A DNA stretch of 64,000 nucleotides from a bacterium (GTDB lineage Bacteria; Patescibacteriota; Minisyncoccia; Phycocordibacterales; Zambryskibacteraceae). Location of the stretch: contig JAUSGI010000005.1 of assembly GCA_030649135.1 (NCBI GenBank), positions 1 through 64,000 on the forward strand, read 5' to 3'. Below are positions 9,873 through 63,866 of this stretch, piece by piece. The notes under the pieces were generated by a model. That model worked only from the letters and a program-made list of their open reading frames with translations, had not been told where the DNA came from and searched no databases. The position numbers and the translations under genes were made by a program. The stretch's first letter is position 1; each line of letters opens with the position of its first letter.

Positions 9873-9951
9873 TATAACACGGACGCATTTGACTTGATTT
9901 TCTGTTCAAATAGTTATAGGTTTCTTAGCAGAATTGAGCACAGACAGGAGA

Positions 9952-10215
9952 ATGGCCATGCGATCAGTCACGATAACATTCACGGAAGAGCTCCAGGATG
10001 TCGAGAGCGGCGTGACTCCGGGTGGAGCGATCTTTCTCCACAGCATGATTATGGCGATTAACCGCTTCACGAATACGCTTGAGGTTACCGCACCGCATGA
10101 GATCAAGGTAACCGCCGAACTCATTGGGCTCAAATACGAGGACGGCGCAGACGAGGATGCATTCTCGGTCATTGTGCACAGATCCAAGGTCAGCAAGATG
10201 ACCATCGAGTTTTAG
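9952..10215 (+). CDS. hypothetical protein (GC-rich cassette gene)
   Basis: About 86 aa. AGGAG precedes ATGgccATG; the true start is 9952 or 9958. Followed by a strong terminator. Compositionally unlike its neighbours. Confidence 0.5.
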   Translation: MAMRSVTITFTEELQDVESGVTPGGAIFLHSMIMAINRFTNTLEVTAPHEIKVTAELIGLKYEDGADEDAFSVIVHRSKVSKMTIEF

Positions 10216-10244
10216 TAACTACCTTTCGAACAGTATCAGGGGTA

Positions 10245-10278
10245 GGGCCGCGACGTCGTCGCGGCCCTCTTTTCATTT
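10245..10278 (+). terminator. intrinsic terminator (GGGCCGCGACG tcg TCGCGGCCC + TCTTTTCATTT)
   Basis: 11-bp GC stem followed by a T-rich run. Confidence 0.7.
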
Positions 10279-10326
10279 ACCTTTTAGTGTGTTGCAAAAT
10301 ATGAGTGCATATGCTATACTTGGAAA

Positions 10327-10593
10327 GTGATTTCAAAGACCAGAAAACTTAAGCTCATCAAGGAAGTAGCCATCCACGAAAAGGATACGGGCTCTCCTGA
10401 AGTGCAAATTTCCATACTGACAAAGCGTATCGAGGATTTAGCCAAACATCTCAAAACGCATGCCAAGGACAATCACTCGCGTCGCGGGCTTCTCGCCATG
10501 GTGGCGGGGCGCCAGGCGCATATGAAATATTTGGAAAAGAAAAGTCCGAAACGCGCCAGAGCTTTAGAAAAGAAACTTGGTCTGAAGAAATAA
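10327..10593 (+). CDS. rpsO: 30S ribosomal protein S15
   Basis: 88 aa; HEKDTGSPEVQISILTKRIEDLAKHLKTHAKDNHSRRGLL is the S15 signature. Confidence 0.9.
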   Translation: MISKTRKLKLIKEVAIHEKDTGSPEVQISILTKRIEDLAKHLKTHAKDNHSRRGLLAMVAGRQAHMKYLEKKSPKRARALEKKLGLKK

Positions 10594-10617
10594 GTTTTAA
10601 TAGATTAGAAAAATTTA

Positions 10618-11160
10618 ATGACAGTAATAAAACATAAAGCCCAGCGGGTCGGCATTTTCATAGACACGCAAAACATTTATCACAGCGCCAAAAATATTCA
10701 CCACGCCAAAGCAAATTTTGGCGCGATAGTGAAGGACGTACTCGATGGACGGGTGCTCATCCGCGCTTTAGCCTACGTGGTCACTACCGAATCCGGCGAA
10801 GAAAACGCCTTCTTCGGCGCGCTAGAAAAAGCGGGTATCGAAATACGTTCGAAACCATTGCAAATATTTCTCGGTGGAGCCAAGAAAGCGGACTGGGATG
10901 TCGGATTGGCAATTGATGCCGTCACTATGGCACCCAAACTCGACAGCATCATCCTCTTGTCCGGCGATGGAGACTATGTGCCTTTGGTAGAATACATTCA
11001 AAACACCCATGGTTGCCAGGTAGAGGTAGTGGCCTTCGGCAAATCATCTTCGGCGCGTCTGATTGAAGCGGCCGATGACTTTATCGACCTCGACCAGAAT
11101 CCTAAAAAATATCTTCTCAACACCAACAACATAAAACTTCGTGAAGGAGGCGTCAGATAG
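10618..11160 (+). CDS. NYN-domain (LabA-like / DUF88) protein, putative RNase
   Basis: 180 aa; VGIFIDTQNIYH...ILLSGDGDYVPLVEY matches the PIN-like NYN fold. Confidence 0.75.
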   Translation: MTVIKHKAQRVGIFIDTQNIYHSAKNIHHAKANFGAIVKDVLDGRVLIRALAYVVTTESGEENAFFGALEKAGIEIRSKPLQIFLGGAKKADWDVGLAIDAVTMAPKLDSIILLSGDGDYVPLVEYIQNTHGCQVEVVAFGKSSSARLIEAADDFIDLDQNPKKYLLNTNNIKLREGGVR

Positions 11161-11194
11161 TTCGACCAACTCACTACAAGTGAGTTAGAATAGA

Positions 11195-12061
11195 GTGATG
11201 AATCCGGAAGAAACTCCTTTAAAACAAATTCGCACCTTTCAAGGAGATGTAGCGGAAGCACTCCAGAAACAGCAAGGCTCGCTCGTCTCGATTCAACAAG
11301 CGGAACATTTAAGAACAAGGAACCGTCTTTCGGCTACCGATACCGCCACAGAACAACCTAACAAAAGAAAGGAATTCGTCGTGCTCCTTTTAGGAAGCTT
11401 TGTTCTCCTCGCCCTAAGTGTGGGCGGGGGCTGGTATGCTTACAACGAATATGTGAGAAGGTCCGCCACTCCGATTACAACCGCACCGGCAAACAGATTT
11501 ATATCGGCCAATACCGAAGCCAATATAATGCTTGCGGCCACTTCACGCGATACTCTTTTTCAGACTCTTTCCGATGCCATCAAGGGCATGGCCTCCGGGG
11601 AACTTAGACATGTCGTCTTGCGAAAGGGTTTGACGAAAGAAACGGCTTATCTGTTTCCCACAAGCGAATTTTTGGTAGCACTCGAGAGCCGGGCTCCCGG
11701 CGGGCTGGTACGAGCTTTCGACCCGCTTTTCATGTTTGGAGCTTCCGGAAAAAGTGCCTTCTTAATAATTAAACTGGCCTCTTTTGAAAATGCCTTTGCG
11801 GGCATGCTCGCTTGGGAGAAAAATATGAGTCAAGATATCGGACCTCTATTTGCCACCGCCACGCTCTTGAAAGATATGCCGCCCGAAGCCGTCTTCACGG
11901 ACCTGATAGACAAAAACAAGGACGTTCGGGTCCTTGCGCTCGGCAAGGAGCCAGTTCTCCTTTACTCATTTGTCGACAACAATATGCTTATCATCACGGA
12001 TAATATCGAGACTTTAAGAACTCTCGTAGACCGCCTGACGCGAGAAAAACTTTCCCGTTAG
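11195..12061 (+). CDS. hypothetical membrane-anchored protein
   Basis: 288 aa; one TM helix (FVVLLLGSFVLLALSVGGGWYAY) followed by a presumably extracytoplasmic domain. Confidence 0.5.
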   Translation: MMNPEETPLKQIRTFQGDVAEALQKQQGSLVSIQQAEHLRTRNRLSATDTATEQPNKRKEFVVLLLGSFVLLALSVGGGWYAYNEYVRRSATPITTAPANRFISANTEANIMLAATSRDTLFQTLSDAIKGMASGELRHVVLRKGLTKETAYLFPTSEFLVALESRAPGGLVRAFDPLFMFGASGKSAFLIIKLASFENAFAGMLAWEKNMSQDIGPLFATATLLKDMPPEAVFTDLIDKNKDVRVLALGKEPVLLYSFVDNNMLIITDNIETLRTLVDRLTREKLSR

Positions 12062-12085
12062 CCCGTTTTCTGATAAGATAAGTGT

Positions 12086-12445
12086 ATGGCTATAGACTAC
12101 GAACACTTTAAAACAAAGCTAGAGGCGGAAAAAAAACTTTTAGAAGAAGAGTTGGAGAAAGTCGGCAGAAGAAACCCCGATAACCTTTCCGATTGGGAAG
12201 CCACCCCTGCTGACAAAGACACCTCCCAAGCGGACGAAAACACCGTCGCTGATGGCGTGGAAGACTATGAAGACAATGTGGCAATCGTTGACACTTTGGA
12301 AACTCGTTACCGAGACCTCAAAATCGCTTTGGATAAAATCAAGCAGGGCACCTACGGCATCTGCGAAACCGACAAAGAAGAAATAGACACGGAGCGGCTT
12401 GAAGCGAATCCATCAGCCCGCACTTGCCGCAAACATATGGAATGA
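12086..12445 (+). CDS. DksA/TraR-like C4 zinc-finger protein (degenerate)
   Basis: 119 aa; acidic coiled-coil N-terminus and C-terminal GICETDKEEIDTERLEANPSARTCRKH resembling the DksA/TraR finger. Confidence 0.55.
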   Translation: MAIDYEHFKTKLEAEKKLLEEELEKVGRRNPDNLSDWEATPADKDTSQADENTVADGVEDYEDNVAIVDTLETRYRDLKIALDKIKQGTYGICETDKEEIDTERLEANPSARTCRKHME

Positions 12446-13971
12446 GTTTCTCCAAGGTTTATAGTGCACAAACAAATCTTCTTTCTGTTATCCCTATTTC
12501 CGTCGAGACGGATATTTCTCGCGGTCTAAATGCTTTCGCAATAGTCGGCCTGCCGGACAAAGCCGTAGAAGAAGCGCGGGACCGTGTCTCAGCCGCTATC
12601 AAAAACTCTGGGTTTGATTCCCCGAAAGCTAAAAATCATAAAATAGTTATCTCACTTGCGCCTGCGGACCAGAAGAAAGAAGGCCCGTCCTACGATGTTG
12701 CCATCGCTCTGTCATACCTTACGGCCAATAAAGACATCGCCTTCGACCACGAGGGTAAATTATTTTTAGGGGAGCTATCGCTCGACGGAAAAGTGCGGGC
12801 GGTACACGGCATCCTGCCTATTGCCCAATTTGCCAAACAAAATGGTTTCAAAGAACTTTATGTACCCATGGAAAATGTTCGCGAAGCGGCTCTTATTGAC
12901 GGTGTAAGTATCTTTGGCATCTTGTCCCTTGCGGGGCTCATAGAACATCTTTCCGGTACTGCCAAAATTCCAAAAGCGATATTGACCGTAGTCGATAAAA
13001 GAAAATCGGTTTCGAATATAGACTTCTCCGACATCAGGGGTCAAGAAAGGGCCAAGCGTGGACTCTTGATTGCGGCGGCAGGCGGACATAATGCCGCCAT
13101 GTACGGACCGCCCGGTACCGGCAAAACCATGCTTGCTAAAGCTTTTGCCGGCATCTTGCCGGAACTCACTTTCGAAGAGGCACTCGAAGCGACCGGCATC
13201 CACTCCGTAGCAGGCACGCTCTCCGAAACTTTTATTGCTCACCCTCCTTTCCGAGCACCACACCATACCGCTTCGTACGTTTCATTAGTCGGTGGCGGAG
13301 CCACGCCTAGGCCGGGAGAAATCACTTTGGCTCACCGCGGAGTCCTTTTCATGGATGAATTCCCGGAGTTTGACAGGAGAGTGATAGAAAGTTTACGCCA
13401 ACCGCTTGAAGATAAAGTGATATCCGTTTCCCGCGCCAAAGGCACGGCGCACTTCCCGGCGAATGTGTTATTGATAGCCGCCATGAATCCATGCCCTTGC
13501 GGGAACTTCGGCTTCCGAGGCAAGCCCTGCATTTGCACACCTTCCACGCTTTCGAGGTATCGAAGGAAAATGTCGGGACCAATCATGGACCGCATAGACA
13601 TCTGGCTTGAAGTGGATAGAGTCCTGCCAAGCGAACTCTCCGGCGACTCGGAAGGGGAAGTAAGTGAGAGTCTTCGAAGTAAAGTGGAGAAGGCACGAGT
13701 AGCCCAGAAAGAACGTTTCAATAAAAAAGGCAAGAAAATATCGCGCAACTCGGAAATGAACGCCAGAGACATGGTGACACTTGTCACTCTCGATAAAGAA
13801 TCGCGCAGGACGCTTGACCTCGCCGCAGAGCGTTTAGGTTTTTCCCCACGCGTTTATCACCGAATGATAAAAGTGGCGCGCACCGTTGCCGACCTTGAGG
13901 GCAGCGAAGAAATTAACAACTCGCACATCCTAGAGGCAGTCGAATACCGCCCTAAAAAGTTTGATGTTTAG
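12424..13971 (+). CDS. comM: YifB/ComM family Mg-chelatase-like AAA+ ATPase
   Basis: 515 aa; N-terminal Lon-like/ChlI domain, Walker A (GPPGTGKTMLAKAF), Walker B (LFMDEFPEF). Confidence 0.9.
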   Translation: MPQTYGMSFSKVYSAQTNLLSVIPISVETDISRGLNAFAIVGLPDKAVEEARDRVSAAIKNSGFDSPKAKNHKIVISLAPADQKKEGPSYDVAIALSYLTANKDIAFDHEGKLFLGELSLDGKVRAVHGILPIAQFAKQNGFKELYVPMENVREAALIDGVSIFGILSLAGLIEHLSGTAKIPKAILTVVDKRKSVSNIDFSDIRGQERAKRGLLIAAAGGHNAAMYGPPGTGKTMLAKAFAGILPELTFEEALEATGIHSVAGTLSETFIAHPPFRAPHHTASYVSLVGGGATPRPGEITLAHRGVLFMDEFPEFDRRVIESLRQPLEDKVISVSRAKGTAHFPANVLLIAAMNPCPCGNFGFRGKPCICTPSTLSRYRRKMSGPIMDRIDIWLEVDRVLPSELSGDSEGEVSESLRSKVEKARVAQKERFNKKGKKISRNSEMNARDMVTLVTLDKESRRTLDLAAERLGFSPRVYHRMIKVARTVADLEGSEEINNSHILEAVEYRPKKFDV

Positions 13972-14915
13972 AACTGATTCTTGGCGCCGCGGATTTCGAA
14001 ATGGAGATGCGGACCCGTTGACTTGCCGGTACTGCCGACAGCTCCGATAACTTGACCCTGCGCCACATTCTGTCCGGACAAAACAATATTTTTACTCATG
14101 TGGGCATAAAGCGTCTGGGTACCATTCGTATGGCTAATTACTACATAAAGTCCGTAACCGCCATTGTATCCGCCGGCACGTGACACAATAACCTTACCGC
14201 CAGCCGAGGCGAGGATTGGGGTGCCCGTGGGGGCCGCCAAGTCGACACCATTGTTGCCGTGAAGGCCTTGACTCTTTCTGCCACCCACTATCGGGCGAAG
14301 ATAAAATCCTGCATAAGTAGGATAACCTTGAGAGGCCTGTGACCTGGAAGTTCGGGCTAGGGAAGTCTGGGAAACACTAATGACACCGTCAGGGATAATT
14401 ACAACATCGCCCGCTTTGAGCTTGGCACCACTTGGAAGGTCGTTATATGAAAGGATATCGCCGAGATCCGCTTTATATTTGGTGGCTATAGACTTGAGAG
14501 TATCGCCGCTTTTTACAGTGTGGCGCACCCCGGAGATGGGCAGGATGACAAGTTCTTGCCCTTCTTTTATCGAACCCCTCTTGATGTCGTTGGCCCAGAC
14601 AATAGTGTTGGTGGAAACGCCGAACATCTCGGCAATTTCACTTAGGGTATCGCCTCGGCGCACAACGTACACACTAATCTGACCGGTGCCGGACTTACCA
14701 AGGTCTACGAATACTTCACTATCTCCGCCGTTAGATTCCAGAGCGACACTATCCACGATGGCGACCCGCGCGCGCCCTGTGCCGGTAGGGTTAATATTTA
14801 AATATCCTTCCAAAAGATCCATGGTCTGGGAATTACCGGCATCCACCACTTCCGGCATACGCAAAACTTCCCCCGCCTGGCTACGCGCTAGGGCGAAGAT
14901 AGGGAAGGTGACCAA
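13968..14915 (-). CDS. LysM-domain M23 family metallopeptidase
   Basis: 315 aa; signal peptide, two LysM repeats (YVVRRGDTLSEIAEMFGVS; HTVKSGDTLKSIATKY), and M23 HxxxD...HLHFE motifs. Confidence 0.88.
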   Translation of the reverse strand: MVTFPIFALARSQAGEVLRMPEVVDAGNSQTMDLLEGYLNINPTGTGRARVAIVDSVALESNGGDSEVFVDLGKSGTGQISVYVVRRGDTLSEIAEMFGVSTNTIVWANDIKRGSIKEGQELVILPISGVRHTVKSGDTLKSIATKYKADLGDILSYNDLPSGAKLKAGDVVIIPDGVISVSQTSLARTSRSQASQGYPTYAGFYLRPIVGGRKSQGLHGNNGVDLAAPTGTPILASAGGKVIVSRAGGYNGGYGLYVVISHTNGTQTLYAHMSKNIVLSGQNVAQGQVIGAVGSTGKSTGPHLHFEIRGAKNQF

Positions 14916-15027
14916 TGCAAAAAGTATATATTTGGTCGTTATTTTACTAATAGAATATGGCTAAACTGCTATGTTTTGTACCAATCTTTCACTAACCATT
15001 ATAACCTCATATGATATAGTGTCCAGC

Positions 15028-16956: not shown

Positions 16957-16969
16957 TCTCTTACCACAT

Positions 16970-16988
16970 GTCGACTCCGGGAGTCGAC
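16970..16988. repeat. REP-like 19-bp perfect palindrome GTCGACTCCGGGAGTCGAC (copy 1, 32 bp upstream of the RAYT gene)
   Basis: One of three near-identical copies at 16970-16988, 17174-17192 and 17643-17661. Confidence 0.7.
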
Positions 16989-50129: not shown

Positions 50130-50510
50130 GTGATTCGTGCGAAGAAGAAGTTTGTTGTCGGTGCAGGGGAGCTTGACCAGTATGGCCACCTCAACTGCGA
50201 GGCCTTGAAACGGGTATTGCGGCCATCTCAGGACGCGCTGCTTGCTTCTCGCGGCATGACATTTAGTGCCGCCTGTGGCCCCGGGAAGTTCATCAAGAGG
50301 CTCAGTATTATTTGGTTGGCCCAGCTCAAGAAAGGGGATAAGTGTCTTGTTGTGACTAGTCTCACGCTGGGCAAAACAGACATAGTGTTCGAACAGAGAC
50401 TCACCAGGAAAGGTAGTCTCGCCGTTTCCTACATCACGGTGTTGACCATGGTAGGGAATGGCAGAAAAGTTCCCATTCCCATGGAAGTCAAGAGGCGGTT
50501 ATCGACCTAG
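50130..50510 (+). CDS. hotdog-fold thioesterase-like protein
   Basis: 126 aa; the DQYGHLNCEAL pattern resembles 4HBT-type acyl-CoA thioesterases; moderately GC-rich; non-ATG start likely. Confidence 0.45.
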   Translation: MIRAKKKFVVGAGELDQYGHLNCEALKRVLRPSQDALLASRGMTFSAACGPGKFIKRLSIIWLAQLKKGDKCLVVTSLTLGKTDIVFEQRLTRKGSLAVSYITVLTMVGNGRKVPIPMEVKRRLST

Positions 50511-50534
50511 AGAAGTGCCACCTCTCGTGACGTC

Positions 50535-50570
50535 ACCGCCGCCCGCATGTTACCGGGCGGCGGCTTTAAT
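50535..50570. terminator. bidirectional terminator hairpin (GCCGCCCG catgtta CCGGGCGGC + TTTAATT) shared by the thioesterase gene and folD
   Basis: The stem overlaps the folD stop codon; a T-run follows on the plus strand. Confidence 0.5.
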
Positions 50571-51380
50571 TAGGTTTTGAAAAAGGGAGGCGACGGTCAT
50601 CGGGCCAACACCACCGGGTACCGGCGTAATGGCTTTCACTACCTTGCTGACTTTCTCATAATCCACGTCCCCCACAATTTTTTTGTTTTTTGTGATATTG
50701 ATACCGATATCAACCACAATCTGATTTCGGGAAACGTGTTTCGTTGTAATTAATTTGGGGTGACCGACGGCCGTTATCAAAATATCGGCACGCTTGGTTT
50801 CTTTTTCTAAGTTTCTCGTATTTTTATGGCACATGGTTACTGTAGCACCCTTATTCAGCAAGGCGAGCATGGCCGGCCTGCCAACCAAAGATGATTGTCC
50901 CACGATTACTATCCTCTTACCGGCCAGTTTGATTTTATATTCCTCGAGCAGGTCCACGATGCCTTTGGCTGTAGCGGGGATGAATGCCTCGTTATTATCA
51001 AACAAATGCTTAGTATTAACTGCCGTTAGCCCGTCCACATCCTTTTGCGGGTCTATAGACTCAAGCACTTTTTCAATGAGAAAATTTTTAGGCGCGGGTA
51101 ACTGTACCATGATGCCATGAACGGAAGAGTCCCGGTTACTTTTCAGAATATAAGAAATTATTTGTGACTCCTTGACGCTGTTCGGATACCTTTTGTGTAT
51201 AGTCTCTACGCCAATTCTCTCGGCAAAATTTTTTTTGTTTCTGATATAGGTATTCGACTCTTTCAAGTCGCCAATCTGAATAATTACCAGTTTTGGTTTG
51301 CGAGGCAACTTCTTGATTTTCTTTAGAAGTTTAAGGGCCAGTGACTGACTTAATTTCTTGCCGTCCAGGATTTTTGTCAT
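50550..51380 (-). CDS. folD: bifunctional methylenetetrahydrofolate dehydrogenase/cyclohydrolase
   Basis: 276 aa; GRSSLVGRP-like and PGGVGPMT motifs. Confidence 0.92.
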   Translation of the reverse strand: MTKILDGKKLSQSLALKLLKKIKKLPRKPKLVIIQIGDLKESNTYIRNKKNFAERIGVETIHKRYPNSVKESQIISYILKSNRDSSVHGIMVQLPAPKNFLIEKVLESIDPQKDVDGLTAVNTKHLFDNNEAFIPATAKGIVDLLEEYKIKLAGKRIVIVGQSSLVGRPAMLALLNKGATVTMCHKNTRNLEKETKRADILITAVGHPKLITTKHVSRNQIVVDIGINITKNKKIVGDVDYEKVSKVVKAITPVPGGVGPMTVASLFQNLIKAAAR

Positions 51381-51390
51381 GATAATACGG

Positions 51391-51463
51391 TGCGCCCAGC
51401 AGGGATCGAACCTGCGACCTTGTCCTTAAAAGGGACCTGCTCTACCAACTGAGCTATGGGCGC
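51391..51463 (-). tRNA. tRNA-Lys (anticodon TTT)
   Basis: Manual fold: acceptor GCGCCCA/TGGGCGC; D-arm GCTC-AGTTGGTA-GAGC; anticodon loop CTTTTAA; T-arm GCAGG-TTCGATC-CCTGC. CCA not fully encoded. Confidence 0.8.
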
Positions 51464-51508: not shown

Positions 51509-51913
51509 TTAGAGGGGGATGTCTATTGCGTAAGCGCCGGCGCCGGTCAACAGTAACGACAGAGAGATGGCGAAAATGAGAATATAGAAAACCATGTCGC
51601 GTTTGAGGATTTCGCGCGCCTGCCATTCCACATAGAGCTCAATGCCGGAGAAAATCACAAAGGCTAGAGCCGCCACTTGCGTCCAAAGACCAGCCAAGAG
51701 CATCAACCCGCCGATAATCTGGAGCAGGGCGTAGAGAGGCACGAATAAGTCTGCCGGACGCAGACCGAGTGTTTCAAAGGAAGCAAGCCATCCCTCTTTT
51801 TCGCTTCGGAATTTTAAAAATCCAAGGTCGATAAAAATGAGAGCTAGGAGTATCCGCAAGATAAAAGGGCCGAGCATTGAGTACGCCAAGAGTTCGGGAA
51901 AAGGGTTAAGCAT
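51509..51913 (-). CDS. DoxX family membrane protein
   Basis: 134 aa; four hydrophobic helices with the DoxX-like pattern. Confidence 0.7.
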   Translation of the reverse strand: MLNPFPELLAYSMLGPFILRILLALIFIDLGFLKFRSEKEGWLASFETLGLRPADLFVPLYALLQIIGGLMLLAGLWTQVAALAFVIFSGIELYVEWQAREILKRDMVFYILIFAISLSLLLTGAGAYAIDIPL

Positions 51914-53261: not shown

Positions 53262-54407
53262 TTAGCGCTCAGGTTGCTTAATAAGATTTTCTAAATTGTT
53301 AAACCAGAAATACAAGGAAATAAATGCCACAACCAAGAATGAGAGTTCAAACTTACCTATAGACAAAAGGAATAATGTGGTGGTAAAAACTATGACCCTT
53401 CCTAAAATGGTAGGAACTTCTCGTAGTACGAGGAATTGAGCATCGGCACTGCGGGCGCGATTTAGCATAATCGCACCGTATGCACTGGCGAAGATTCCTA
53501 GTGCAAATCCCCGAAGAATGGTCACCATATAGAGCAGAGCCGGTGTCGGTGAATAAATAGCAACCACATAAGAAAGAGTCCACGTGACTGTTGTTGCAAT
53601 TGCACCAAAGCGCACAATTGCTTTTTTATCCCATTTATCGATGAGCGTGCCGGTGATATGGGTTACGACAATTCCTACAAGTCCAGCAAGAACTCCTAGT
53701 GCCCCAATATCAAGCACCGTGAGTCCCGTTATGATTAAGAAAAGGACCCAGATGATTTGTGCATCCTGCCCAAGGTTATCTAGGATTTCTGGCAAAATGA
53801 AATGTTTGTTTTTGCGAGTAATTGCACTAATTTCTGATAGGTCAAATTTAAAACTCGTTTTCTCGTGTCTCATCGGTAGCACGGGAATAATAGAAATAAG
53901 AATAAATACTAATGCGGCTGCAAATAAAAGGTTGTACCCATAAAAAACAATTAATAGGGCGGCAATTCCTGGCACAATAAGCCCAACCGCAGACCCAACG
54001 TTAGACATAAAAGCAAGTGATGAGCCTATTGTGGAATCTTCGGTCTTACGAACAGTAAGGATGTTGTATGGAATCCAGAAAAATGCCGATTCCATTCCAC
54101 TTATAATAGCCAGAATAAATAAGATAGATGGGTGGCTTGGTAACAAAAATAACCCAGAGAAGAGAATTGTTACTAACACTATGCGTACATACCAACAACG
54201 CACAAGCCCGATGATGTTGGAAACATAAATTGCCAAAAAAGCACCCAAAAGAAGTGATAAATGGTGTGCCAGTAACCAAGTAATTACGATGGAAACAGAG
54301 TTTCCCAGCCCCAATAAATATATAGGAACAAATAATCCTACAAGGCCCGTACCAATACCAGCGATGGTATTCATGGCAACAATACGCTGAAAATCAGTTA
54401 AGCGCAT
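53262..54407 (-). CDS. MFS transporter
   Basis: 381 aa; about 11 to 12 hydrophobic helices. Confidence 0.7.
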   Translation of the reverse strand: MRLTDFQRIVAMNTIAGIGTGLVGLFVPIYLLGLGNSVSIVITWLLAHHLSLLLGAFLAIYVSNIIGLVRCWYVRIVLVTILFSGLFLLPSHPSILFILAIISGMESAFFWIPYNILTVRKTEDSTIGSSLAFMSNVGSAVGLIVPGIAALLIVFYGYNLLFAAALVFILISIIPVLPMRHEKTSFKFDLSEISAITRKNKHFILPEILDNLGQDAQIIWVLFLIITGLTVLDIGALGVLAGLVGIVVTHITGTLIDKWDKKAIVRFGAIATTVTWTLSYVVAIYSPTPALLYMVTILRGFALGIFASAYGAIMLNRARSADAQFLVLREVPTILGRVIVFTTTLFLLSIGKFELSFLVVAFISLYFWFNNLENLIKQPER

Positions 54408-55409: not shown

Positions 55410-56399
55410 ATGAAAAAAATTTTGATTGTTGCGATTATCCTTTTGACCGGATTAATATTGGTGTGGGTCACTCGTTCTCTGACTCCAAAAGAAAGTCATC
55501 AAATAACCGATTTTACCGTGGCTTGCCGTCCTACAACCGGAAAGATCGATCAGAAAGTTTTTGGAATTGGATCGGTCGGCGCCGACGTAGAAATATTTAA
55601 TATTGTTCAGGATTTGGGAGTTAAGTGGCTTCGTCTGGATATCCCTTGGACTGACATTGAACCGGCAGAAGGAACGTTCAAATGGGCGGGGGTCGATCTC
55701 GGTATGCGCGAATTGGAAAAGCGAAATATTGGACTTCTTGCAATCATTAACCATCCACCCGACTGGGTATGGGGACGTGATACGACACTTGCACAAAATG
55801 CCGCAAAAAGTTTTGGCAAAGCAATTGCCGCTCGCTATAAGGGAAGAATCAAATACTATGAAGCTTTCAACGAGCCCAATTTGCCGGGTTTCGGTTTTTT
55901 CCGCGAAGGGGAGAGGGTGAATGTAAAAACATATGTCGCATATTTATCAGGGCTCAATGCCGGTATTCGCGAAGCTGATCCCGCCGCGCTTATTGTGCTT
56001 GGTGGACTTTCTTCTGACGAGAACAACATTTCAAGAAAGCAATTCATTGCTGAATTAAGTCAAAATGGAGCTGGTGACTGTTTTGATATTTTTGCTTTCC
56101 ATCCCTACGGCTACGAAGATGGGTATTTAGACAGCCTTCATTCAGAGTTGAAAGAAACTATTAAGTCACTTGGCCTTGAGAAACCAATATGGTTTAACGA
56201 ATTGGGAACGAGTGACGATTCAAAAAGAGCAGAGATTTTAAAAGGTCTTTCAAATCAAATTTCTAACATCCCTGGGTTTTTTTGGTTCAGTGTTCGCGAT
56301 CTTTCTCCGCGTGAGCGCTATGGTCTCGTAACGCTCGATAATCAAAAAAAGGAGCCCGATTACTCCCTTTTTAAAGCAATCGTTCAGTTCGTCGATTAA
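55410..56399 (+). CDS. secreted glycoside hydrolase, clan GH-A TIM-barrel (GH5/GH39-like)
   Basis: 329 aa; N-terminal TM/signal; FNEPN catalytic acid/base motif. Confidence 0.65.
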   Translation: MKKILIVAIILLTGLILVWVTRSLTPKESHQITDFTVACRPTTGKIDQKVFGIGSVGADVEIFNIVQDLGVKWLRLDIPWTDIEPAEGTFKWAGVDLGMRELEKRNIGLLAIINHPPDWVWGRDTTLAQNAAKSFGKAIAARYKGRIKYYEAFNEPNLPGFGFFREGERVNVKTYVAYLSGLNAGIREADPAALIVLGGLSSDENNISRKQFIAELSQNGAGDCFDIFAFHPYGYEDGYLDSLHSELKETIKSLGLEKPIWFNELGTSDDSKRAEILKGLSNQISNIPGFFWFSVRDLSPRERYGLVTLDNQKKEPDYSLFKAIVQFVD

Positions 56400-56887: not shown

Positions 56888-56930
56888 AGATGCAAAAATT
56901 ATATCATAATCTATATGTCACTATCCCCTA

Positions 56931-57686: not shown

Positions 57687-57825
57687 TTTTTCTTTCCAAA
57701 AATGTTTTAATCTTTTGATTATTGGAGGGGTGGCTGACCATCGCCTACGGCGAGGCCCCGCCTCACCGCATTATGCGGGATCCCGCCAATGGCGGTGAAG
57801 CGGCGGTGGGAGGTTTAAGGCATAT

Positions 57826-58071
57826 TTGTTTATGTTTGCAACCTACATTCTTAAAAGCAAAACCACCAACAGATATTACATTGGGTATACAAGTAACGTA
57901 GGAAAAAGAATCATTTATCACAATACCGGCAGGAATATTTCTACGAGAAGCGGTATACCTTGGAGCCTTGTGTATTCAGAATCATTTGAAACTCGAGCTG
58001 AAGCATGGAAAAGAGAACACCAGATAAAGTCATATAAAAGTGGAGAAGCTTTTAAAAAATTGATACAGTAA
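57826..58071 (+). CDS. GIY-YIG nuclease family small protein
   Basis: 81 aa; YILKSKTTNRYYIGYTSNVGKRIIYHN... carries the GIY-x10-YIG and R..H/N motifs. Confidence 0.75.
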   Translation: MFMFATYILKSKTTNRYYIGYTSNVGKRIIYHNTGRNISTRSGIPWSLVYSESFETRAEAWKREHQIKSYKSGEAFKKLIQ

Positions 58072-58078
58072 GGTATCT

Positions 58079-58167
58079 GGAGGGGTGGCAGAGAGGTCTA
58101 TCGCACCGCACTTGAAATGCGGCGTGGGGTAAATCCCACCGTGAGTTCGAATCTCACCCCCTCCGCC
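58079..58167 (+). tRNA. tRNA-Ser (anticodon TGA)
   Basis: Manual fold: acceptor GGAGGGG/CCCCTCC; anticodon stem CCGCA/TGCGG with loop CTTGAAA; long variable arm (CGTGGGGTAAATCCCACC); T-arm GTGAG-TTCGAAT-CTCAC. Confidence 0.8.
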
Positions 58168-58302
58168 TTCGCCTCGCCGAAGCCCGCAAGGGCGTAGGCG
58201 GGCTTCGCTCGGCTTCGGCGTGACAAAGTCCGCCAGGTTGCATCGGAGCGACCCGAGTGCCTTAACGTGTCCTTTGGTCGAATCTGATATACTTTTTTTA
58301 TT

Positions 58303-58854
58303 ATGAATATCAAATTAGGGACATTAGATTTCGCGATAGCAATGGAACGTCCAGAGTTACTTGCAAAAGCGGTGGTTGAGGTCCTTTCTGTCTTACCTAA
58401 TGCTGACAAAGTCGGGGTTGCCGAAATTGACCCTAATCTCTCCGACACAGCTGGTTTTTGTGAACACTATAAGGTTGGAATGAACCATGCAGCCAACTGC
58501 GTAGTATTAGAAGCGAAGCGGGCAGATAAAAGCTGGTTTGCCGCTTGTGTAATTTTTGGCAATACCAGAGCCGATGTAAATGGTCTGGTTCGGAGAACCT
58601 TGGATGCCCGCAAGGTGTCATTTGCGCCAATGGAGCAGGCGGTAACTCAGACCGGTATGGAATATGGAGCTATTACACCAGTTGGCTTGCCTAATGATTG
58701 GTCTATTTTGATTGATAAAGCGGTAGCTGATTCTGATTATGTAATTATTGGAAGTGGAATTAGAAAATCGAAACTCGCTGTTCCTGGAAGCTTTTTAGCA
58801 TCTCTGCCTAATGTCCAAGTTTTAGAAGGACTTGGCCAAATGAAAACAATATGA
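58303..58854 (+). CDS. YbaK/ProX-type aminoacyl-tRNA deacylase domain protein
   Basis: 183 aa; size and pattern (AANCVVLE...GAITPVGLP...IGSG) fit the YbaK/EbsC editing domain. Confidence 0.7.
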   Translation: MNIKLGTLDFAIAMERPELLAKAVVEVLSVLPNADKVGVAEIDPNLSDTAGFCEHYKVGMNHAANCVVLEAKRADKSWFAACVIFGNTRADVNGLVRRTLDARKVSFAPMEQAVTQTGMEYGAITPVGLPNDWSILIDKAVADSDYVIIGSGIRKSKLAVPGSFLASLPNVQVLEGLGQMKTI

Positions 58855-59195
58855 GCCAGATTACTTACGAAGAATTTGAAAAAGTGGATATTCGGGTTGG
58901 GAAAATTGTCGAAATTTCTGACTTTCCGGAAGCTCGGAAGCCTGCATACAAACTCAAGATTGATTTCGGCTCCGAGATCGGGATAAAGCAATCAAGTGTT
59001 CAAGCAGTAGGAGCTCATGCAAAAGAAGAGCTTCTCAACTCGCTTGTTTGCTGTGTGGTTAATTTTCCACCAAAGCAAGTGGGGCCATTTAAGTCGGAAG
59101 TCCTAACTCTTGGCTTTAAGAATAGTGCAGGTGACGGGTGGGTTCTTATTGAACCGAAGAGTGATCCGGTAACACTTGGAAGCAAACTAACTTAA
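58851..59195 (+). CDS. csaA: tRNA-binding protein CsaA (Trbp111/EMAP-type OB fold)
   Basis: 114 aa; FEKVDIRVGKIVEI...HPDADKLYV-like pattern. Confidence 0.8.
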   Translation: MSQITYEEFEKVDIRVGKIVEISDFPEARKPAYKLKIDFGSEIGIKQSSVQAVGAHAKEELLNSLVCCVVNFPPKQVGPFKSEVLTLGFKNSAGDGWVLIEPKSDPVTLGSKLT

Positions 59196-59255
59196 TCTTA
59201 TGGCAATCCAAATTACCTAAGCGTGCCCATGACCCCGCAAGGGAATTTGAACCAC

Positions 59256-59283
59256 TTGACATTGGATAGTTTATATGTATAAT
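59256..59283 (+). promoter_or_regulatory. near-consensus sigma70 promoter with extended -10 (TTGACA, 16 nt spacer, TGtATAAT)
   Basis: Followed by about 75 nt of UTR and an AAGGAG SD before the GC-rich gene at 59365. Confidence 0.55.
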
Positions 59284-59364
59284 GGTGCCCAGACGTTCGA
59301 TTGCAGTTAACCGATCTACAGGCGGGGTACGCAAAGTAAGCGTATTCTAGCCAAGGAGTTTGCC

Positions 59365-60045
59365 ATGAAGCTGAAGTTTCCCGACCTGACCAACGTGCTT
59401 GCGTGTGTGAACGGGAACTGCCCCGCCTCGAAGGAGGGTATCCTCCCAGAGGAAGCTCACGCTCGCCTCCGCCAGGACGGCGAGGATGTCGTGGCCGAGC
59501 CGATCTGCCTGGCCTGCGCCGGGGATGCGGCAAAGCGCGGTATCTCCGCGCCTCTCATCTCCTCGCTCATCAAGCGCGAGGAGGAGGCTCGGGCGATCAT
59601 CGTCGCCAACGCGAAGGAGGTCGAGAGCCACGATGCCCGGCAGAGGGAGCTCGATGCTCTCTTTGCCGGTGCCGTGTTCTTCTGCCGGGTTCCCGGCTGT
59701 TCGGCGGCTCCCGAGCCGGTGAACAAGATGTTTTCGGCGGTCTACATCGAGGGCGGGAAGGAGCAGGTCGTTCCGATCTGTCCGATCTGTGTCGATGGCG
59801 CCCACCAGACGGGCGTGAAGGTCACCGACCTTCACGCCACCATCGCGCGGCTCACGCGCGAGGGTAGGGAGCACCTGCTCTACGAGCAGGCGGAGAGAAA
59901 CAAGGTCCCGGCGAATAACTTTCTCGCCGCCTGCCAGAGGGGCGACGCCCGCAATCAGCGGGCGATGCCAGCCGTGGTCGCTCACCACGGCAATGGCAAC
60001 GGTAACGGCCTTGGCAATCGACCGAGGCTGGCGACCAACAGGTAG
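59365..60045 (+). CDS. hypothetical protein with duplicated Cys-ribbon module (very GC-rich)
   Basis: 226 aa; two similar units (CVNGNCPAS...PICLACAGDA and CRVPGCSAA...PICPICVDGA); (HGNG)n Gly/Asn C-terminal tail; about 65 percent GC against about 40 percent in its neighbours. Confidence 0.5.
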   Translation: MKLKFPDLTNVLACVNGNCPASKEGILPEEAHARLRQDGEDVVAEPICLACAGDAAKRGISAPLISSLIKREEEARAIIVANAKEVESHDARQRELDALFAGAVFFCRVPGCSAAPEPVNKMFSAVYIEGGKEQVVPICPICVDGAHQTGVKVTDLHATIARLTREGREHLLYEQAERNKVPANNFLAACQRGDARNQRAMPAVVAHHGNGNGNGLGNRPRLATNR

Positions 60046-60059
60046 TCCGAGCGCAGCAA

Positions 60060-60091
60060 GGCGTGGGGAGGAATCTCCCCACGCCTTTTAA
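60060..60091 (+). terminator. intrinsic terminator (GGCGTGGGGAG gaat CTCCCCACGCC + TTTTAA)
   Basis: 11-bp GC stem followed by a T-run. Confidence 0.7.
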
Positions 60092-60117
60092 CTTTTCTAA
60101 AATAAATTTCTGGGAAA

Positions 60118-60351
60118 TTATTCCTCCTCCACTATTTCCACCTTATACTTCTTGGCGACAAAGAATAGGTAAATTATTTCAAGAACACCGAGCGTATTTA
60201 TTAAGAGAATTACGATAAACCAGTACTTCTGTCTAAGTTCGGCTGATTTCCAAAGGGCGAACCCTTTCCATGTCAGCGTCCATATTATTGCGAGGGCGAT
60301 GAGGAGAGGGTTTGTCTCTACCCATCCAGCCAGTATATTTATTGATTCCAT
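60118..60351 (-). CDS. hypothetical small two-TM membrane protein
   Basis: 77 aa; two hydrophobic helices. Confidence 0.4.
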   Translation of the reverse strand: MESINILAGWVETNPLLIALAIIWTLTWKGFALWKSAELRQKYWFIVILLINTLGVLEIIYLFFVAKKYKVEIVEEE

Positions 60352-60380
60352 GACAGGCTAATTATACTATAATTCTTCCT

Positions 60381-60770
60381 ATGAGACTGATGGCTATCGA
60401 TTACGGAGAAAAGCGTGTGGGCATTGCTTCCACGGACGAGACCGGCGGTTTCGCTTTGCCGCGTGCCGTCTGGCCGAACGATAAGACTTTGTTGGACAAG
60501 ATTTTTAAACTCAAGGAAGATGAGGGGATAGAGAAAATTATTGTCGGTGAATCAAGAAACTTGGATGGTAGCGCCAATCCGATTCAGAAAGAGATAGAAA
60601 AATTTAAAAGCGAACTGGAAAAACGTGGCGCCGAAGTCGTTTCCCATCCGGAAGTGTTTACTACTGTCGAGGCCAGGCGGCTTCAGGGGCAAACGGAAAT
60701 GACCGACGCTTCCGCCGCCGCCCTAATTCTCAAGAGTTTTCTTGATACCGTGTATAATAAAGGCACATGA
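60381..60770 (+). CDS. ruvX: putative pre-16S rRNA nuclease / Holliday-junction resolvase-like YqgF (RuvX)
   Basis: 129 aa; MAIDYGEKRVGIA...IVGES motifs of the YqgF family. Confidence 0.85.
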   Translation: MRLMAIDYGEKRVGIASTDETGGFALPRAVWPNDKTLLDKIFKLKEDEGIEKIIVGESRNLDGSANPIQKEIEKFKSELEKRGAEVVSHPEVFTTVEARRLQGQTEMTDASAAALILKSFLDTVYNKGT

Positions 60771-62326
60771 CCGCGCTTCTAGGGCAAAAAACTTTTCTGG
60801 ACTTTTTCCCTGCACCCGAATTTCTCCTGCTCTCGACTGTCGGCATTGTCATTACCGATACCGACACGAGACTCGTACAGTTAAGGAGAGAAATTTTGGG
60901 AGACGGGTTCAAACTAGCCAATTCAAGCCAAGCGGCAAATCCTGCCGGTGCGGTTGAGGCAGGTCTAATCAATAATCCCGACGCGCTCGGCGCTGTTTTA
61001 AAGAAACTTGCTTTGCCCTACGGTATTCGTTATGCCCACGCCTCCTTGCCGGAAGAGAAGACATATCTCTTTACCACTCGCATTAACTGGGTACCTCCGG
61101 AAGGTCTAAAGGATGCGGTGGCATTCATTGTGGAAGAGAACGCGCCGGTGTCTCTGTCCGAATCGGTATTCAACTTTGAGATTATCAAAGAAGATGAGCA
61201 TGCGGACGAGATTAACCTGGCTGTTTCTGTGGTGCCTAAAAATGTCATCAATGCTTATGTAGAACTTTTTGAATCTGTCGGCATCACTCCGATTTCCTTC
61301 GACCTTGAGTCGCAAGCTATCGCGCGGGCAGTCATTCACCGCGGGGACAAACGTACGCAACTTATCGTCAATCTGTCTTTGCGTAAAACCGGTTTCTATA
61401 TAGTCGCGGACGAAGTGGTGCAGTTTAGCACTACGCCGGCTTATGGGATTGGTGAAGACGAATCTTATCCCAGTCTTAATGATTTAAAGGCGGAGATGCG
61501 CAAAGTGCTGGCTTTTTGGAATGCTCGTACTGATAAATCCGGTAAACCAGAAAAGAAAATTGAAAAGGTAATCCTAGTCGGACTCGGAGGCAGTAAGACG
61601 GAATTTGTTGAAAAATTGATGAGCGAAAGCGATATTCCATATGCGCCGGCGGATGTGGGGCTCAACATGTCTCCTTCGCGGAGCCATGTTTCGGGGATAC
61701 CTTTCGATGAATCTCTAAGTTACGCTTCCGCCATAGGCCTGGTTCTTCCCAGGGGCAGAAAAGACATGTTTAAACTACTGACAGAAGAAGGAGGTCATAA
61801 GGTGGCGCACAAATATGCTATGCATCGAGCTGTGGTCATGCTTTCTGCATTCATCTTCGTGCTTGTTGCGGGAATAATAGGACTCTTGCCGTCATACGTA
61901 CTCTCGAATGCCCGCCAGAACGAGGCGTTGGAGCGTACGAGAATCATGAATAGTGCCGGACAAATCGATAATGAGTCAGTTCTACAGGCATGGCTTAAAG
62001 AGATGAATCGCAAACTTCGGATACTTTCCCCCGCACTTGATATGGACCGGCCATCGGCTTTTATCGAGAGAGTTCTCGACCAGAAAGCTACCGGTGTGCG
62101 TGTTACCGGTTTTTCGTGGATAAGGGCGAAAGATAAGGTCACTCTCTCGGTCAATGGCATCACTTTAGATCGCCAGGCACTTATCACATTTGAAGACCGC
62201 ATTAACTCTTCGGGATATTTCTCTGAAGTTACTTTGCCAATATCCAACTTAGCCAAAGATAAAGACATTGATTTCCAAATTAAATTCTCGCCGGCTCTAC
62301 CTACGCCGTCCGCTCAAACGCCATGA
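60767..62326 (+). CDS. pilM: type IV pilus assembly PilM-PilN fusion protein
   Basis: 519 aa; N-terminal actin-like ATPase-fold region, then a TM helix (VMLSAFIFVLVAGIIGLLP) and a PilN-like periplasmic coiled-coil/beta region. Confidence 0.65.
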   Translation: MTALLGQKTFLDFFPAPEFLLLSTVGIVITDTDTRLVQLRREILGDGFKLANSSQAANPAGAVEAGLINNPDALGAVLKKLALPYGIRYAHASLPEEKTYLFTTRINWVPPEGLKDAVAFIVEENAPVSLSESVFNFEIIKEDEHADEINLAVSVVPKNVINAYVELFESVGITPISFDLESQAIARAVIHRGDKRTQLIVNLSLRKTGFYIVADEVVQFSTTPAYGIGEDESYPSLNDLKAEMRKVLAFWNARTDKSGKPEKKIEKVILVGLGGSKTEFVEKLMSESDIPYAPADVGLNMSPSRSHVSGIPFDESLSYASAIGLVLPRGRKDMFKLLTEEGGHKVAHKYAMHRAVVMLSAFIFVLVAGIIGLLPSYVLSNARQNEALERTRIMNSAGQIDNESVLQAWLKEMNRKLRILSPALDMDRPSAFIERVLDQKATGVRVTGFSWIRAKDKVTLSVNGITLDRQALITFEDRINSSGYFSEVTLPISNLAKDKDIDFQIKFSPALPTPSAQTP

Positions 62327-62841
62327 TTTTAAAAAACTCCAAGCCACTTCTTATCATACTTTCACTCATCTCTATTTCACTTCTTGCCGTGCTGGTATTG
62401 GGAGCATACAGAATACAACTCAAGAATAAGGAGGCTTCCGAACTTCTTAATTTGGCGGATCGCGCTGCCGAGGCAAGAACTTTGGCCCAGTCCATCCGCA
62501 CGGTACAAAGTAGTGCCGCCGAAGAATTGGCGGCTTTTGATAGTTTTACGCTTTCCGACAGTAAGCTTGTACCTCTCATTGAAAGTGTGGAGGGGGTTGG
62601 CAAGGCCCTTGGTCTTAATACCGATATCGTATCTGTGGGGAAAATAGAGGACAAAAAAGCTGTCGAGCCGGCCATGATTCGTATAGTGATGGAGACTCAA
62701 GGTTCATGGGCGCAAAACCTTTCCTTTCTGCGGGCTATCGAGAGTTTGCCTAACCGAGTGGTAATAGATGAGCTCGGTCTCTCGAAAGCGGAGGTCGGTT
62801 GGCGTTTAAGAATGGTCCTATCACTTTATTCATTTAACTAA
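62323..62841 (+). CDS. PilO-like pilus assembly protein
   Basis: 172 aa; N-terminal TM, coiled coil, then a ferredoxin-like domain; lies directly after pilM-pilN. Confidence 0.5.
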   Translation: MILKNSKPLLIILSLISISLLAVLVLGAYRIQLKNKEASELLNLADRAAEARTLAQSIRTVQSSAAEELAAFDSFTLSDSKLVPLIESVEGVGKALGLNTDIVSVGKIEDKKAVEPAMIRIVMETQGSWAQNLSFLRAIESLPNRVVIDELGLSKAEVGWRLRMVLSLYSFN

Positions 62842-62845
62842 TACT

Positions 62846-63172
62846 ATGGAGAACTCCCCAGCATCTCTAAAGAAGTCGAGTAGGAAGGCTAAAGGCGGCT
62901 TGTTTACTTTCGGTACCAGTCCGGAGGCCGATTGGAAGATTATTTTAATCTCGGCGATGATTCTTGCCGCCTCGGTTATCGCCCTTAGTGTTTTTATTTT
63001 TATAAAAGTTGGCAAGGGAGAAATCTTTGTGGCAGATATGCCTGAAGTGCAGAAAGAAAAAGCTCTAGATACCGCGCTTCTCAAAGAAACCGTTTTGTAT
63101 TATCAAAATAAGGCGCTCGAGCTTGAGAAAATTAAGAGCACGAGAATCCCAACTGCCGATCCTTCGTTATAG
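62846..63172 (+). CDS. hypothetical single-TM protein (pilus cluster)
   Basis: 108 aa; one TM helix (IILISAMILAASVIALSVFIFI). Confidence 0.35.
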   Translation: MENSPASLKKSSRKAKGGLFTFGTSPEADWKIILISAMILAASVIALSVFIFIKVGKGEIFVADMPEVQKEKALDTALLKETVLYYQNKALELEKIKSTRIPTADPSL

Positions 63173-63363
63173 GTGCGGTTTCAAGTTTTCTTCTCGACCT
63201 GAGTTTTATCGAAGGTTGGCGGCATTAAATCCAGGAATTCACGGAGTGAATATCTAAATAATACAAGATTATGACAAAAATTTCAATTTTAGAAAAAAGC
63301 AGAGCCCCAAGCAGAATTGAATTCCGCAAGGGGCTCGAGTACGAGCTGTTTTCGAAGAAGCCA

Positions 63364-63660
63364 TTACGACCTCTGCGAAGGCGCGACCTCTCTTCCACTG
63401 AACAGAATCACGACGCCGAGTACGAAACCGAAGTTGTACCAACCGCCGCTGTTATGAACCTCATAGAAGCCCACATTGTTCGAGAAGAGCGAGATGACCA
63501 AAGTGATCGGCGCGATCATCCCATGCCATAGACCGAGCCAGAAGCCAGCGAGGCTCCCGTCCGAGGCAACGATATGCGCGGCGGTGTTGGGACCGGCGGC
63601 ACAGCCCGTCAGGAACAGCGCGCTATAGAACAACATCCCGAGCAGGTGCGTTTTCTTCAT
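63364..63660 (-). CDS. hypothetical lipoprotein (GC-rich cassette gene)
   Basis: 98 aa; signal peptide with lipobox (LFLTGC); additional hydrophobic segments; GC-rich. Confidence 0.5.
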   Translation of the reverse strand: MKKTHLLGMLFYSALFLTGCAAGPNTAAHIVASDGSLAGFWLGLWHGMIAPITLVISLFSNNVGFYEVHNSGGWYNFGFVLGVVILFSGREVAPSQRS

Positions 63661-63735
63661 CGCCTTTTCCTCCTTAAGGTGCTATTCCGCGAAGCCCTCG
63701 CGGTGGGGATTTCGGATAACTCCGATTCTTAAACC

Positions 63736-63764
63736 AATATAGCATATATGGTCTTGGAAGTCAA
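63736..63764 (-). promoter_or_regulatory. near-consensus sigma70 promoter with extended -10 (TTGACT, 17 nt spacer, TGcTATATT) driving the GC-rich lipoprotein gene
   Basis: Minus-strand read cTTGACTtccaagaccatatatgcTATATT; UTR with an AAGGAGG SD. Confidence 0.55.
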
Positions 63765-63866
63765 GCCCAACAGAAAAAGCCTATATTTTAGGGCTTTTTC
63801 AAGGTTTCTGAATTATTTGATTTGGATTAAAAAATTTTCTTCCCCATTATAACCCGATTTCCTACA

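Follow-up and report, generated by a model that had tools for sequence, protein, structure and literature searches.

Within a 64-kb window (the whole stretch of contig JAUSGI010000005.1 that was analyzed, 64,000 nucleotides), several GC-rich genes had been noticed, each apparently equipped with its own promoter, ribosome-binding site, and terminator. Four of these genes (41794-42441, 46353-46760, 59365-60045, and 63364-63660) are clear compositional outliers. We consider it likely that they are unrelated monocistronic accessory genes, one of them the predicted variable-protein gene of a diversity-generating retroelement (DGR), and that they do not constitute one system. The traits common to the four are those of any stand-alone, well-expressed gene, namely, a sigma-70 promoter, a Shine-Dalgarno (SD) sequence, and an intrinsic terminator. 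The regularity is real and the initial observation largely right, but this is not a new system; what appeared to be one resolves into recognizable parts. The oddity left over is a long-lived GC excess that is confined to the ORFs and goes together with the strongest expression signals.

Composition and transcription signals of the outlier genes

The overall GC content of the window is 46.8%. Its gene content is candidate-phyla-like (Parcubacteria-like), with DUF5652, a PilM-PilN fusion, a type IV pilus ATPase, small housekeeping genes, and scattered tRNAs, and the nearest genomes found carry the labels of Parcubacteria or Saccharibacteria metagenome-assembled genomes (MAGs). Six genes had been singled out as GC-rich. 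Measured against the 58 other window genes of at least 100 aa (mean GC of 45.9%, standard deviation of 4.0, maximum of 54.4), this stood for four of them (z scores of 2.8 to 4.8) and not for 9952-10215 and 50130-50510 (1.7 and 1.6), which are within the range of ordinary GC-richer genes, given that nusA has a GC content of 54.4%. GC at third codon positions (GC3) averages 0.51 in the background versus 0.68 to 0.82 in the four outliers, in which GC at first and second positions (GC1 and GC2) is also raised, and not GC3 alone. As had been noted, the outliers lie between conserved housekeeping genes (ruvABC, pilB, tsaE, polA, ruvX, and pilM are found around them), and all four are located at synteny breakpoints; 41794-42441, 59365-60045, and 63364-63660 are missing from the corresponding sites in relatives.

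The promoters of all four outlier genes were found where they had been placed, AGGAGG or AAGGAG is present upstream of the outlier genes, and each of the four is indeed a self-contained single-gene transcription unit with promoter, SD, and terminator. The extended -10 template (TGnTATAAT) fits two of the four promoters; at 59256-59283 the TG directly abuts the hexamer, and at 41691-41719 there is no TG. Hairpins followed by a U run, also expected throughout, are present after five genes (-22 to -27 kcal/mol, z of -4.4 to -6.1) and not after 50130-50510, where the downstream hairpin has a z of -1.3. The promoter scan revealed no near-consensus promoter for 9952-10215 and no strong promoter for 50130-50510. 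The top three sigma-70 matches between 44 and 64 kb (12/12, 11/12, and 10/12 with TG) all belong to the GC-rich genes of this interval, one to each of the three, as do two of the three best terminators. Promoter-like sites in the scan totaled 33 versus 24.8 +/- 5.9 in shuffles, which is not far above chance. An Rfam search of the whole window (E up to 5) placed no RNA family within any of the promoter-to-terminator units (cassettes).

Common descent of these units had also been suggested, and here the evidence points the other way. In an alignment of the four upstream modules, only 14 of 174 columns are invariant and mean identity is 55%; the hexamers and the SD are all that they have in common, an outcome that had been named in advance as counting against the proposal. 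No Pfam, NCBIfam, or PHROG family is common to the four proteins, which do not form one protein family, and searches of these databases with the cassette proteins returned only PHROG 30702 (for 63364-63660) and a borderline match to Pfam 4HBT_2 (for 50130-50510, E = 3e-5). Within each gene family, unlike between families, the promoter, the untranslated region (UTR), and the terminator are homologous between genomes. The proposed mobility of whole units holds in part: the entire promoter-UTR-open reading frame (ORF)-terminator unit recurs at other genomic sites for two of the four, the 63364 and 41794 families. Around the cassettes we found no flanking direct repeats beyond an 11-nt match at chance level and no adjoining integrase.

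Table 1. Coordinates and properties of the features discussed (minus-strand promoters and small ORFs are given in the direction of transcription)
Feature	Position	Strand	Properties
Small ORF, SD-preceded	6013-5693	-	106 aa; 61% GC; nothing on viral contigs
Small ORF, SD-preceded	6574-6263	-	103-aa lipoprotein; 61% GC
Small ORF, SD-preceded	6963-6796	-	55 aa; CxxC...CxxC
Hypothetical protein gene	9952-10215	+	87 aa; GC 52.7%, z 1.7 (marginal); beside XerC/D-like integrase
Terminator after 9952-10215	10244-10268	+	Hairpin, -25.7 kcal/mol
Promoter of DGR target gene	41691-41719	+	TTGACA-N17-CATAAT, no TG
Predicted DGR variable-protein (target) gene	41794-42441	+	215 aa; N-terminal three-helix part plus putative C-type-lectin-like domain; GC 59.1%, GC3 0.73, z 3.3
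Variable region (VR)	42323-42433	+	Last ~110 nt/~37 codons of target gene
Inverted repeat/terminator after DGR target	42475-42516	+	-24 kcal/mol, z -4.8; T-run follows
Nuclease/phosphatase-family gene	42527-43258	-	37% GC; absent from L001
Promoter of 46353-46760	46285-46314	+	TTGACT-N18-TGgTATAAT
Lineage-specific lipoprotein gene	46353-46760	+	135 aa; between pilB-like T2SSE and tsaE; GC 57.4%, GC3 0.68, z 2.9
Intrinsic terminator of 46353-46760	46768-46791	+	-22 kcal/mol, z -4.4; kept in L012
4HBT-type thioesterase-like gene	50130-50510	+	GC 52.5%, z 1.6 (marginal)
Hypothetical protein gene	53262-54407	-	41% GC; absent from L012
Glycosyl hydrolase gene	55410-56399	+	43% GC; absent from L012
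Promoter of 59365-60045	59256-59283	+	TTGACA-N16-TATAAT, 12/12; TG abuts hexamer, not TGn
Rare Cys-rich protein gene	59365-60045	+	226 aa; two tandem modules; GC 65.1%, GC3 0.82, z 4.8
Intrinsic terminator of 59365-60045	60058-60087	+	13-bp perfect stem, -26.8 kcal/mol, z -6.1
Intrinsic terminator of 63364-63660	63302-63336	-	-25 kcal/mol, z -5.8; kept in L014 and L047
Small membrane lipoprotein gene	63364-63660	-	98 aa; membrane segments; GC 57.2%, GC3 0.76, z 2.8
Promoter of 63364-63660	63764-63736	-	TTGACT-N17-TGcTATATT

A predicted variable-protein gene of a diversity-generating retroelement

As far as its sequence can tell, 41794-42441 is the variable-protein gene of a DGR. The statement that no described system accounts for the pattern does not hold for this gene, the DGR being a described system. 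Template repeats (TRs) of six related DGRs match the window only at the VR. Against the heterologous TR of L001, a relative with ~82% nucleotide identity to the window, the VR differs at 22 of 29 adenine positions (76%) versus 10 of 73 nonadenine positions (14%). Over 25 family members, the entropy of VR columns rises from 0.46 to 1.45 and 2.85 bits as the number of adenines in the first two positions of the L001 TR codon goes from 0 to 1 and 2. The hypervariable codons of the family coincide with the AAC, AAG, and GAC codons of the TR, and within the last ~37 codons of the same 25 members, conserved scaffold positions alternate with hypervariable ones. The VR has a constant end resembling an initiation of mutagenic homing (IMH) site (GGTGTTCTC...) that is common to TR and VR. 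Beyond it, four homologues retain the inverted repeat at 42475-42516, including its inner loop, and 2 of its base pairs show compensatory changes. Because the position of this repeat matches that of the GC-rich inverted repeat described after the IMH of DGRs (PMC5758913), we regard it as probably the post-IMH repeat of the DGR, which may well act as a terminator in addition.

Relatives of the gene are found within complete DGR cassettes. In L001, a 45%-identical target homologue lies one gene further on, with a 110-nt repeat, an opposite-strand Avd, and a 331-aa reverse transcriptase (RT) alongside, and all 13 mismatches between TR and VR fall on TR adenines (13/13). The RT matches RVT_1 (E = 1e-24), and the Avd matches Pfam bAvd with 47.1 bits (cutoff of 40) and NCBIfam DivGenRetAVD with an E value of 1e-17, below the cutoff of the latter family. 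Two targets in the same arrangement are present on an IMG/VR contig (L020), with 13/14 and 19/19 mismatches on adenines; the family occurs on 2 viral contigs. Scanning metagenomes with a profile of the family yielded 49 loci, 43 of which were analyzed. An RT 57 to 77% identical to that of L001 is present at 19 of the 43, and most of these RT-bearing loci also have a TR, in which nearly all mismatches fall on adenines (e.g., 21/21, 16/16, 18/18, and 23/23). At one locus (L077), a second target is located ~6.7 kb from the RT. Loci L078 and L087 are the two ends of a 699,981-bp contig (Ga0155180_11), which may represent an entire circular candidate-phyla genome; one target adjoins the RT, and circularity would place a second ~6.7 kb from the RT.

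Family members occur after secY, after the RNase J gene, or between yebC and ruvC. In L001, yebC directly follows ruvB, and because of this adjacency, we take 41794-42441 and the AT-rich nuclease-family gene 42527-43258 to be extra in the window. The L001 family member likewise has a visible promoter, and the target genes of the window and of L007 have the SD in common as well. The 5' UTR at 41720-41793 and L007 positions 9940-10000 have in common a hairpin starting with CUGAUG..., followed by GACAGCUAGAGAAAGGAC; the proteins of these two genomes are 63% identical. The target protein matched no Pfam family, neither FGE-sulfatase nor DUF1566, and its lectin fold was not confirmed by Foldseek against the PDB or by a PDB sequence profile.

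Several observations weigh against reading the four outliers as unrelated genes that include a DGR target. In the 64-kb window, we found no RT (tblastn with five family RTs), no Avd (tblastn with one Avd), and no TR outside the VR itself (blastn with the VR and nine heterologous TRs). Some of the loci behind the family statistics are the same genome from different samples and hence not independent. The best promoters and terminators of the 44- to 64-kb interval are all on GC-rich genes, a regularity that lacks a cause if it is coincidence. Moreover, the persistent GC excess in three of the families lacks an explanation. With RT, Avd, and TR all missing from the window, 41794-42441 would be either an orphan or a remote target served by an element located elsewhere in the genome. 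Were it a remote target, an RT/Avd/TR unit elsewhere would make adenine-mutagenized cDNA, which would replace the VR and rerandomize ~12 residues on the putative lectin-like binding face. The alternative to such remote diversification is that 41794-42441 is an orphan copy.

The three remaining outlier genes

The 63364 family is widespread, with 2,085 homologues (clusters) over several phyla, and corresponds to PHROG 30702 (E = 2e-19); it was found on 24 IMG/VR contigs. From the -35 hexamer to the terminator, the unit aligns with copies in L014 and L047. The two settings of the aligned copies are a Kaiserbacteria genome, where dnaK and dnaJ flank the unit, and a genome of 60% GC, where it is found beside groEL. 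It is apparently a lipoprotein unit that moves whole, from promoter to terminator. L010 is without the gene at the syntenic site, although the borders of the insertion are not definable against L010 because the adjoining tRNA-Arg gene is inverted there. Over 25 loci, the GC content of the family gene follows that of the host (r = 0.80): homologues have 49% GC in a Kaiserbacteria locus of 48 to 49% and 61% GC in the 60% GC genome. The window copy, with 57% GC and a GC3 of 0.76 in a 47% GC host, is off this trend, and its nucleotide identity is slightly higher to the high-GC copy (78%) than to the other (75%). From this composition, we infer that 63364-63660 was probably imported from a relative of ~60% GC. 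In one such relative (L046, positions 114 to 5090), the 63364 homologue adjoins a block of 45 to 50% GC in which a large serine recombinase is encoded; with L047, the contig neighboring L046, only the groEL side is in common.

The lipoprotein gene 46353-46760 behaves quite differently. Its positional orthologue in L001 has 65% aa identity and a GC content of 59.1%; that in L012 has only 31% aa identity and 59.4% GC in a locus of 44.9%, with the same TTGACT...TGGTATAAT promoter, SD, and terminator. In three genomes of 45 to 47% GC, then, the orthologues have 57 to 59% GC. No Pfam, PHROG, or viral-contig relatives of 46353-46760 were found. The gene is evidently a resident, fast-evolving lipoprotein gene kept beside the pilus ATPase gene. 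Import from a high-GC source, as had been proposed for the whole set, is contradicted here, the gene being in place and GC-rich in three genomes; conserved in position, fast-evolving, and persistently GC-rich, it is the opposite of a recent import.

In an AlphaFold 2 model of the 59365-60045 product (predicted local distance difference test score of 83), each module consists of a Cys-bearing beta-hairpin, a short helix, and a long helix; no informative fold match to this model was found. A word-indexed search of 5.8 billion clusters for close relatives returned only the protein itself, and 8 remote relatives were found among 1.84 billion representatives. The gene is missing at the syntenic site in L010, L012, and L013. 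The only homologue for which DNA is available (in L019) has a GC content of 62% and a GC3 of 0.81 inside flanks of 41 to 46% GC, and it shares 78% identity with 59365-60045 across the promoter and 5' UTR. No viral-contig relatives were found. Judging from this comparison, 59365-60045 is a rare Cys-rich accessory gene whose promoter and UTR travel with it.

Source of the GC excess

The GC content of the DGR target family is 58.2 +/- 4.3% versus 45.3 +/- 5.5% for its flanks (38 loci), an excess of ~13 points. Where a metagenomic locus has 1.5 kb or more of flanking sequence, the target is more than 5 points above the flank in 31 of 33 cases, and it tracks host GC only weakly (r = 0.38). In 14 complete cassettes, mean GC is 57.9% for the target, 55.8% for the TR, 42.7% for the RT, and 45.0% for the flank, placing the target ~15 points above the RT of its own cassette; neither this gap nor the excess over the host was found stated in the two DGR surveys searched. 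The excess spans the whole ORF but seemingly not the promoter and UTR, and it does not extend to the RT of the same cassette. In the last sixth of the target gene, GC reaches 70% and A falls to 11%, and the remainder is still 56 to 60% GC. Adenine depletion by the DGR was considered as the cause of the whole-gene composition and rejected, A and T being equally depleted outside the VR; adenine mutagenesis accounts for the composition of the VR only. Third-position A makes up 7% in the cassettes versus 24% in ordinary genes, with more NNG codons. Two-fold codons (AAG, GAG, CAG, ATC, TTC, and TAC) shift as they do in nusA, ppa, clpP, and rny, only further, and four-fold families favor NCG and NGG, unlike those of GC-richer housekeeping genes.

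GC richness in this set appears to have more than one cause, namely, probable recent import for 63364-63660 and a gene-specific, persistent bias for 41794-42441, 46353-46760, and probably 59365-60045. Being accessory is not sufficient for a GC excess, because other genes absent from L012 are AT-rich; accessory genes of AT-rich composition have 37 to 43% GC. Repeated uptake of moron-like expression cassettes from a high-GC donor, as originally proposed, would agree with the synteny breakpoints and the absence of 41794-42441, 59365-60045, and 63364-63660 from the same sites in relatives, with the retention of promoter and terminator at different sites, with the viral contigs and PHROG match of the 63364 family and its 61% GC copy in a 60% GC relative, and with the drop in third-position A and the gain in NNG codons, as in high-GC genomes. 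We nevertheless regard it as distinctly unlikely. The donor idea survives for 63364-63660 alone, in a family whose GC tracks that of the host, and fails for 46353-46760, equally GC-rich in place in three genomes, and for the 41794 family, in which the target is GC-rich in nearly every context and well above a coresident RT. Also against it, in the units that we read, the promoters, UTRs, and flanks are AT-rich or host-like in appearance and the ORFs alone are GC-rich; neither direct repeats nor an integrase mark the cassettes; 46353-46760 and 59365-60045 have no viral relatives; and among the accessory genes that L012 lacks, AT-rich ones are no less frequent. An assembly artifact, in which GC-rich fragments of another organism were joined into the contig, is scarcely credible even though the source is a MAG. 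Over 58731-60698, an interval that spans both junctions of 59365-60045, an independent Logan assembly matches the window with 100% identity, making a chimera unlikely; promoters and UTRs also join the ORFs seamlessly, and the same arrangements recur in other samples.

It may instead be that the outliers are part of a class of very strongly expressed (surface) genes found throughout the genome, with codon selection for translation shaping their GC3. The outliers do own the best promoters, together with strong SDs and terminators, two are lipoprotein genes (three if 6263-6574 is counted), the shift of the two-fold codons parallels that in the four housekeeping genes named above, and L20, L35, and IF3 of L007 have a GC3 of 0.71 to 0.72. 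Against this, ribosomal protein S15 of the window has a GC3 of 0.53, and most ribosomal protein genes of L007 range from 0.50 to 0.67 versus 0.79 for the adjoining target gene; in addition, GC1 and GC2 are raised, and the four-fold preference for NCG and NGG is unlike that of housekeeping genes. Because ribosomal genes are not comparably GC3-rich and four-fold codons move toward NNG, translational selection alone is unconvincing as the cause, and we consider a class of this kind quite improbable. Rather unlikely, too, is one lineage process such as GC-biased gene conversion at loci exchanged via conserved flanks. Such a process would fit the persistence of the excess in three families across diverged genomes, the location of the outliers between conserved genes usable as homology arms, and the evolution of 46353-46760, which is much faster than that of the neighboring genes (31 to 65% aa identity versus ~84% for the adjacent ATPase). 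It sits poorly with the low GC of accessory genes at similar breakpoints and with the 63364 family, which has no intrinsic excess.

Alongside the reading of the four as unrelated accessory genes, we entertain, tentatively and with some doubt, the possibility that a gene-specific force in this lineage keeps the DGR target, the pilus-adjacent lipoprotein, and the Cys-rich genes 10 to 20 points GC-richer than the genome over the long term. If so, composition would be selected or driven by biased conversion in strongly expressed host-interaction genes, and DGR targets could travel as promoter-to-terminator cassettes apart from their RT.

Relation to known systems

The 41794 locus resembles known DGRs (those of Bordetella phage BPP-1, with Mtd, bRT, and Avd, and of Treponema, with TvpA) in that the VR lies at the 3' end of a small, putatively lectin-like protein, a GC-rich inverted repeat follows the VR, and relatives carry a TR, Avd, and group-II-like RT with adenine-specific TR-to-VR differences. 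Unlike in these, the window holds no RT, Avd, or TR, pointing to a remote or orphan target; non-adjacent DGR targets have been documented (PMC5758913, PMC8144416). The target also differs in matching no Pfam family and in standing ~13 points above host GC and ~15 above the RT. A DGR clade restricted to the candidate phyla radiation was described by Roux et al. 2021 (PMC8144416). Phage morons offer a second likeness, since here too a promoter, one ORF, and a terminator are found between genes that are adjacent in relatives (ruvB and yebC in L001; ZIP and DUF5652 in L012), composition differs from the surroundings, and the 63364 family is present on viral contigs and in PHROG. Unlike morons, however, the units lie in a cellular chromosome among housekeeping genes and not in a prophage, the 46353 and 59365 families have no viral relatives, and 46353-46760 is conserved in place. 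The patchy distribution, synteny breakpoints, and small families (59365 and 46353) are also those of strain-variable accessory genes, ORFans, or genomic islets. Atypical composition normally decays toward that of the host; unlike in such islets, it persists here in diverged orthologues.

This analysis identifies a previously unannotated DGR variable-protein family, whose members, of ~215 aa, match no Pfam entry and were found in ~25 clusters and at 49 metagenomic loci. It also provides an example, from a candidate-phyla genome, of a DGR target for which a 64-kb stretch holds no RT; surveys that require adjacency of RT and VR would miss such copies. GC-rich ORFs behind host-like promoters, moreover, are not necessarily recent imports. 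If the GC gap between target and RT is general, it needs to be explained, and orphan DGR targets could be sought by means of it.

Other loci in the window

A further example of the GC-rich class looks to be present on the minus strand at 5409-8159, where nusA and a TrmB-like regulator flank a GC-rich block of 2.3 kb that has a promoter-like site near 7760-7732. Its leader (7730-7040) is ~700 nt long, ORF-poor, and 57% GC. The proteins of its three small ORFs (Table 1) are singletons with no family match. A ~35-nt repeat with a hairpin (cagaagagcgaaatNNttcgctcaagttcttt) occurs in the 5' UTRs of the first two, at approximately 6985-7010 and 6610-6640. Between the second and third lies a motif resembling a type III hammerhead ribozyme (6133-6187, minus strand), with a full-length match of 42.7 bits (gathering score of 48.5; E = 6e-6 for the whole window); its activity is uncertain because the core reads CUGAUGU and not CUGAUGA (A9 to U).

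The region from 38.8 to 43.3 kb is a hotspot of gene turnover. Beside ruvC, an IS1595-family transposase gene is located at 39745-40614 (minus strand), where L001 has a Bro-N domain gene. Because 42527-43258, 53262-54407, and 55410-56399 are AT-rich, the flexible genome appears to be compositionally mixed in both directions. The block at 50130-51463 (the thioesterase-like gene, folD, and tRNA-Lys) is missing in L012, where holA directly precedes the homologue of 51509-51913.

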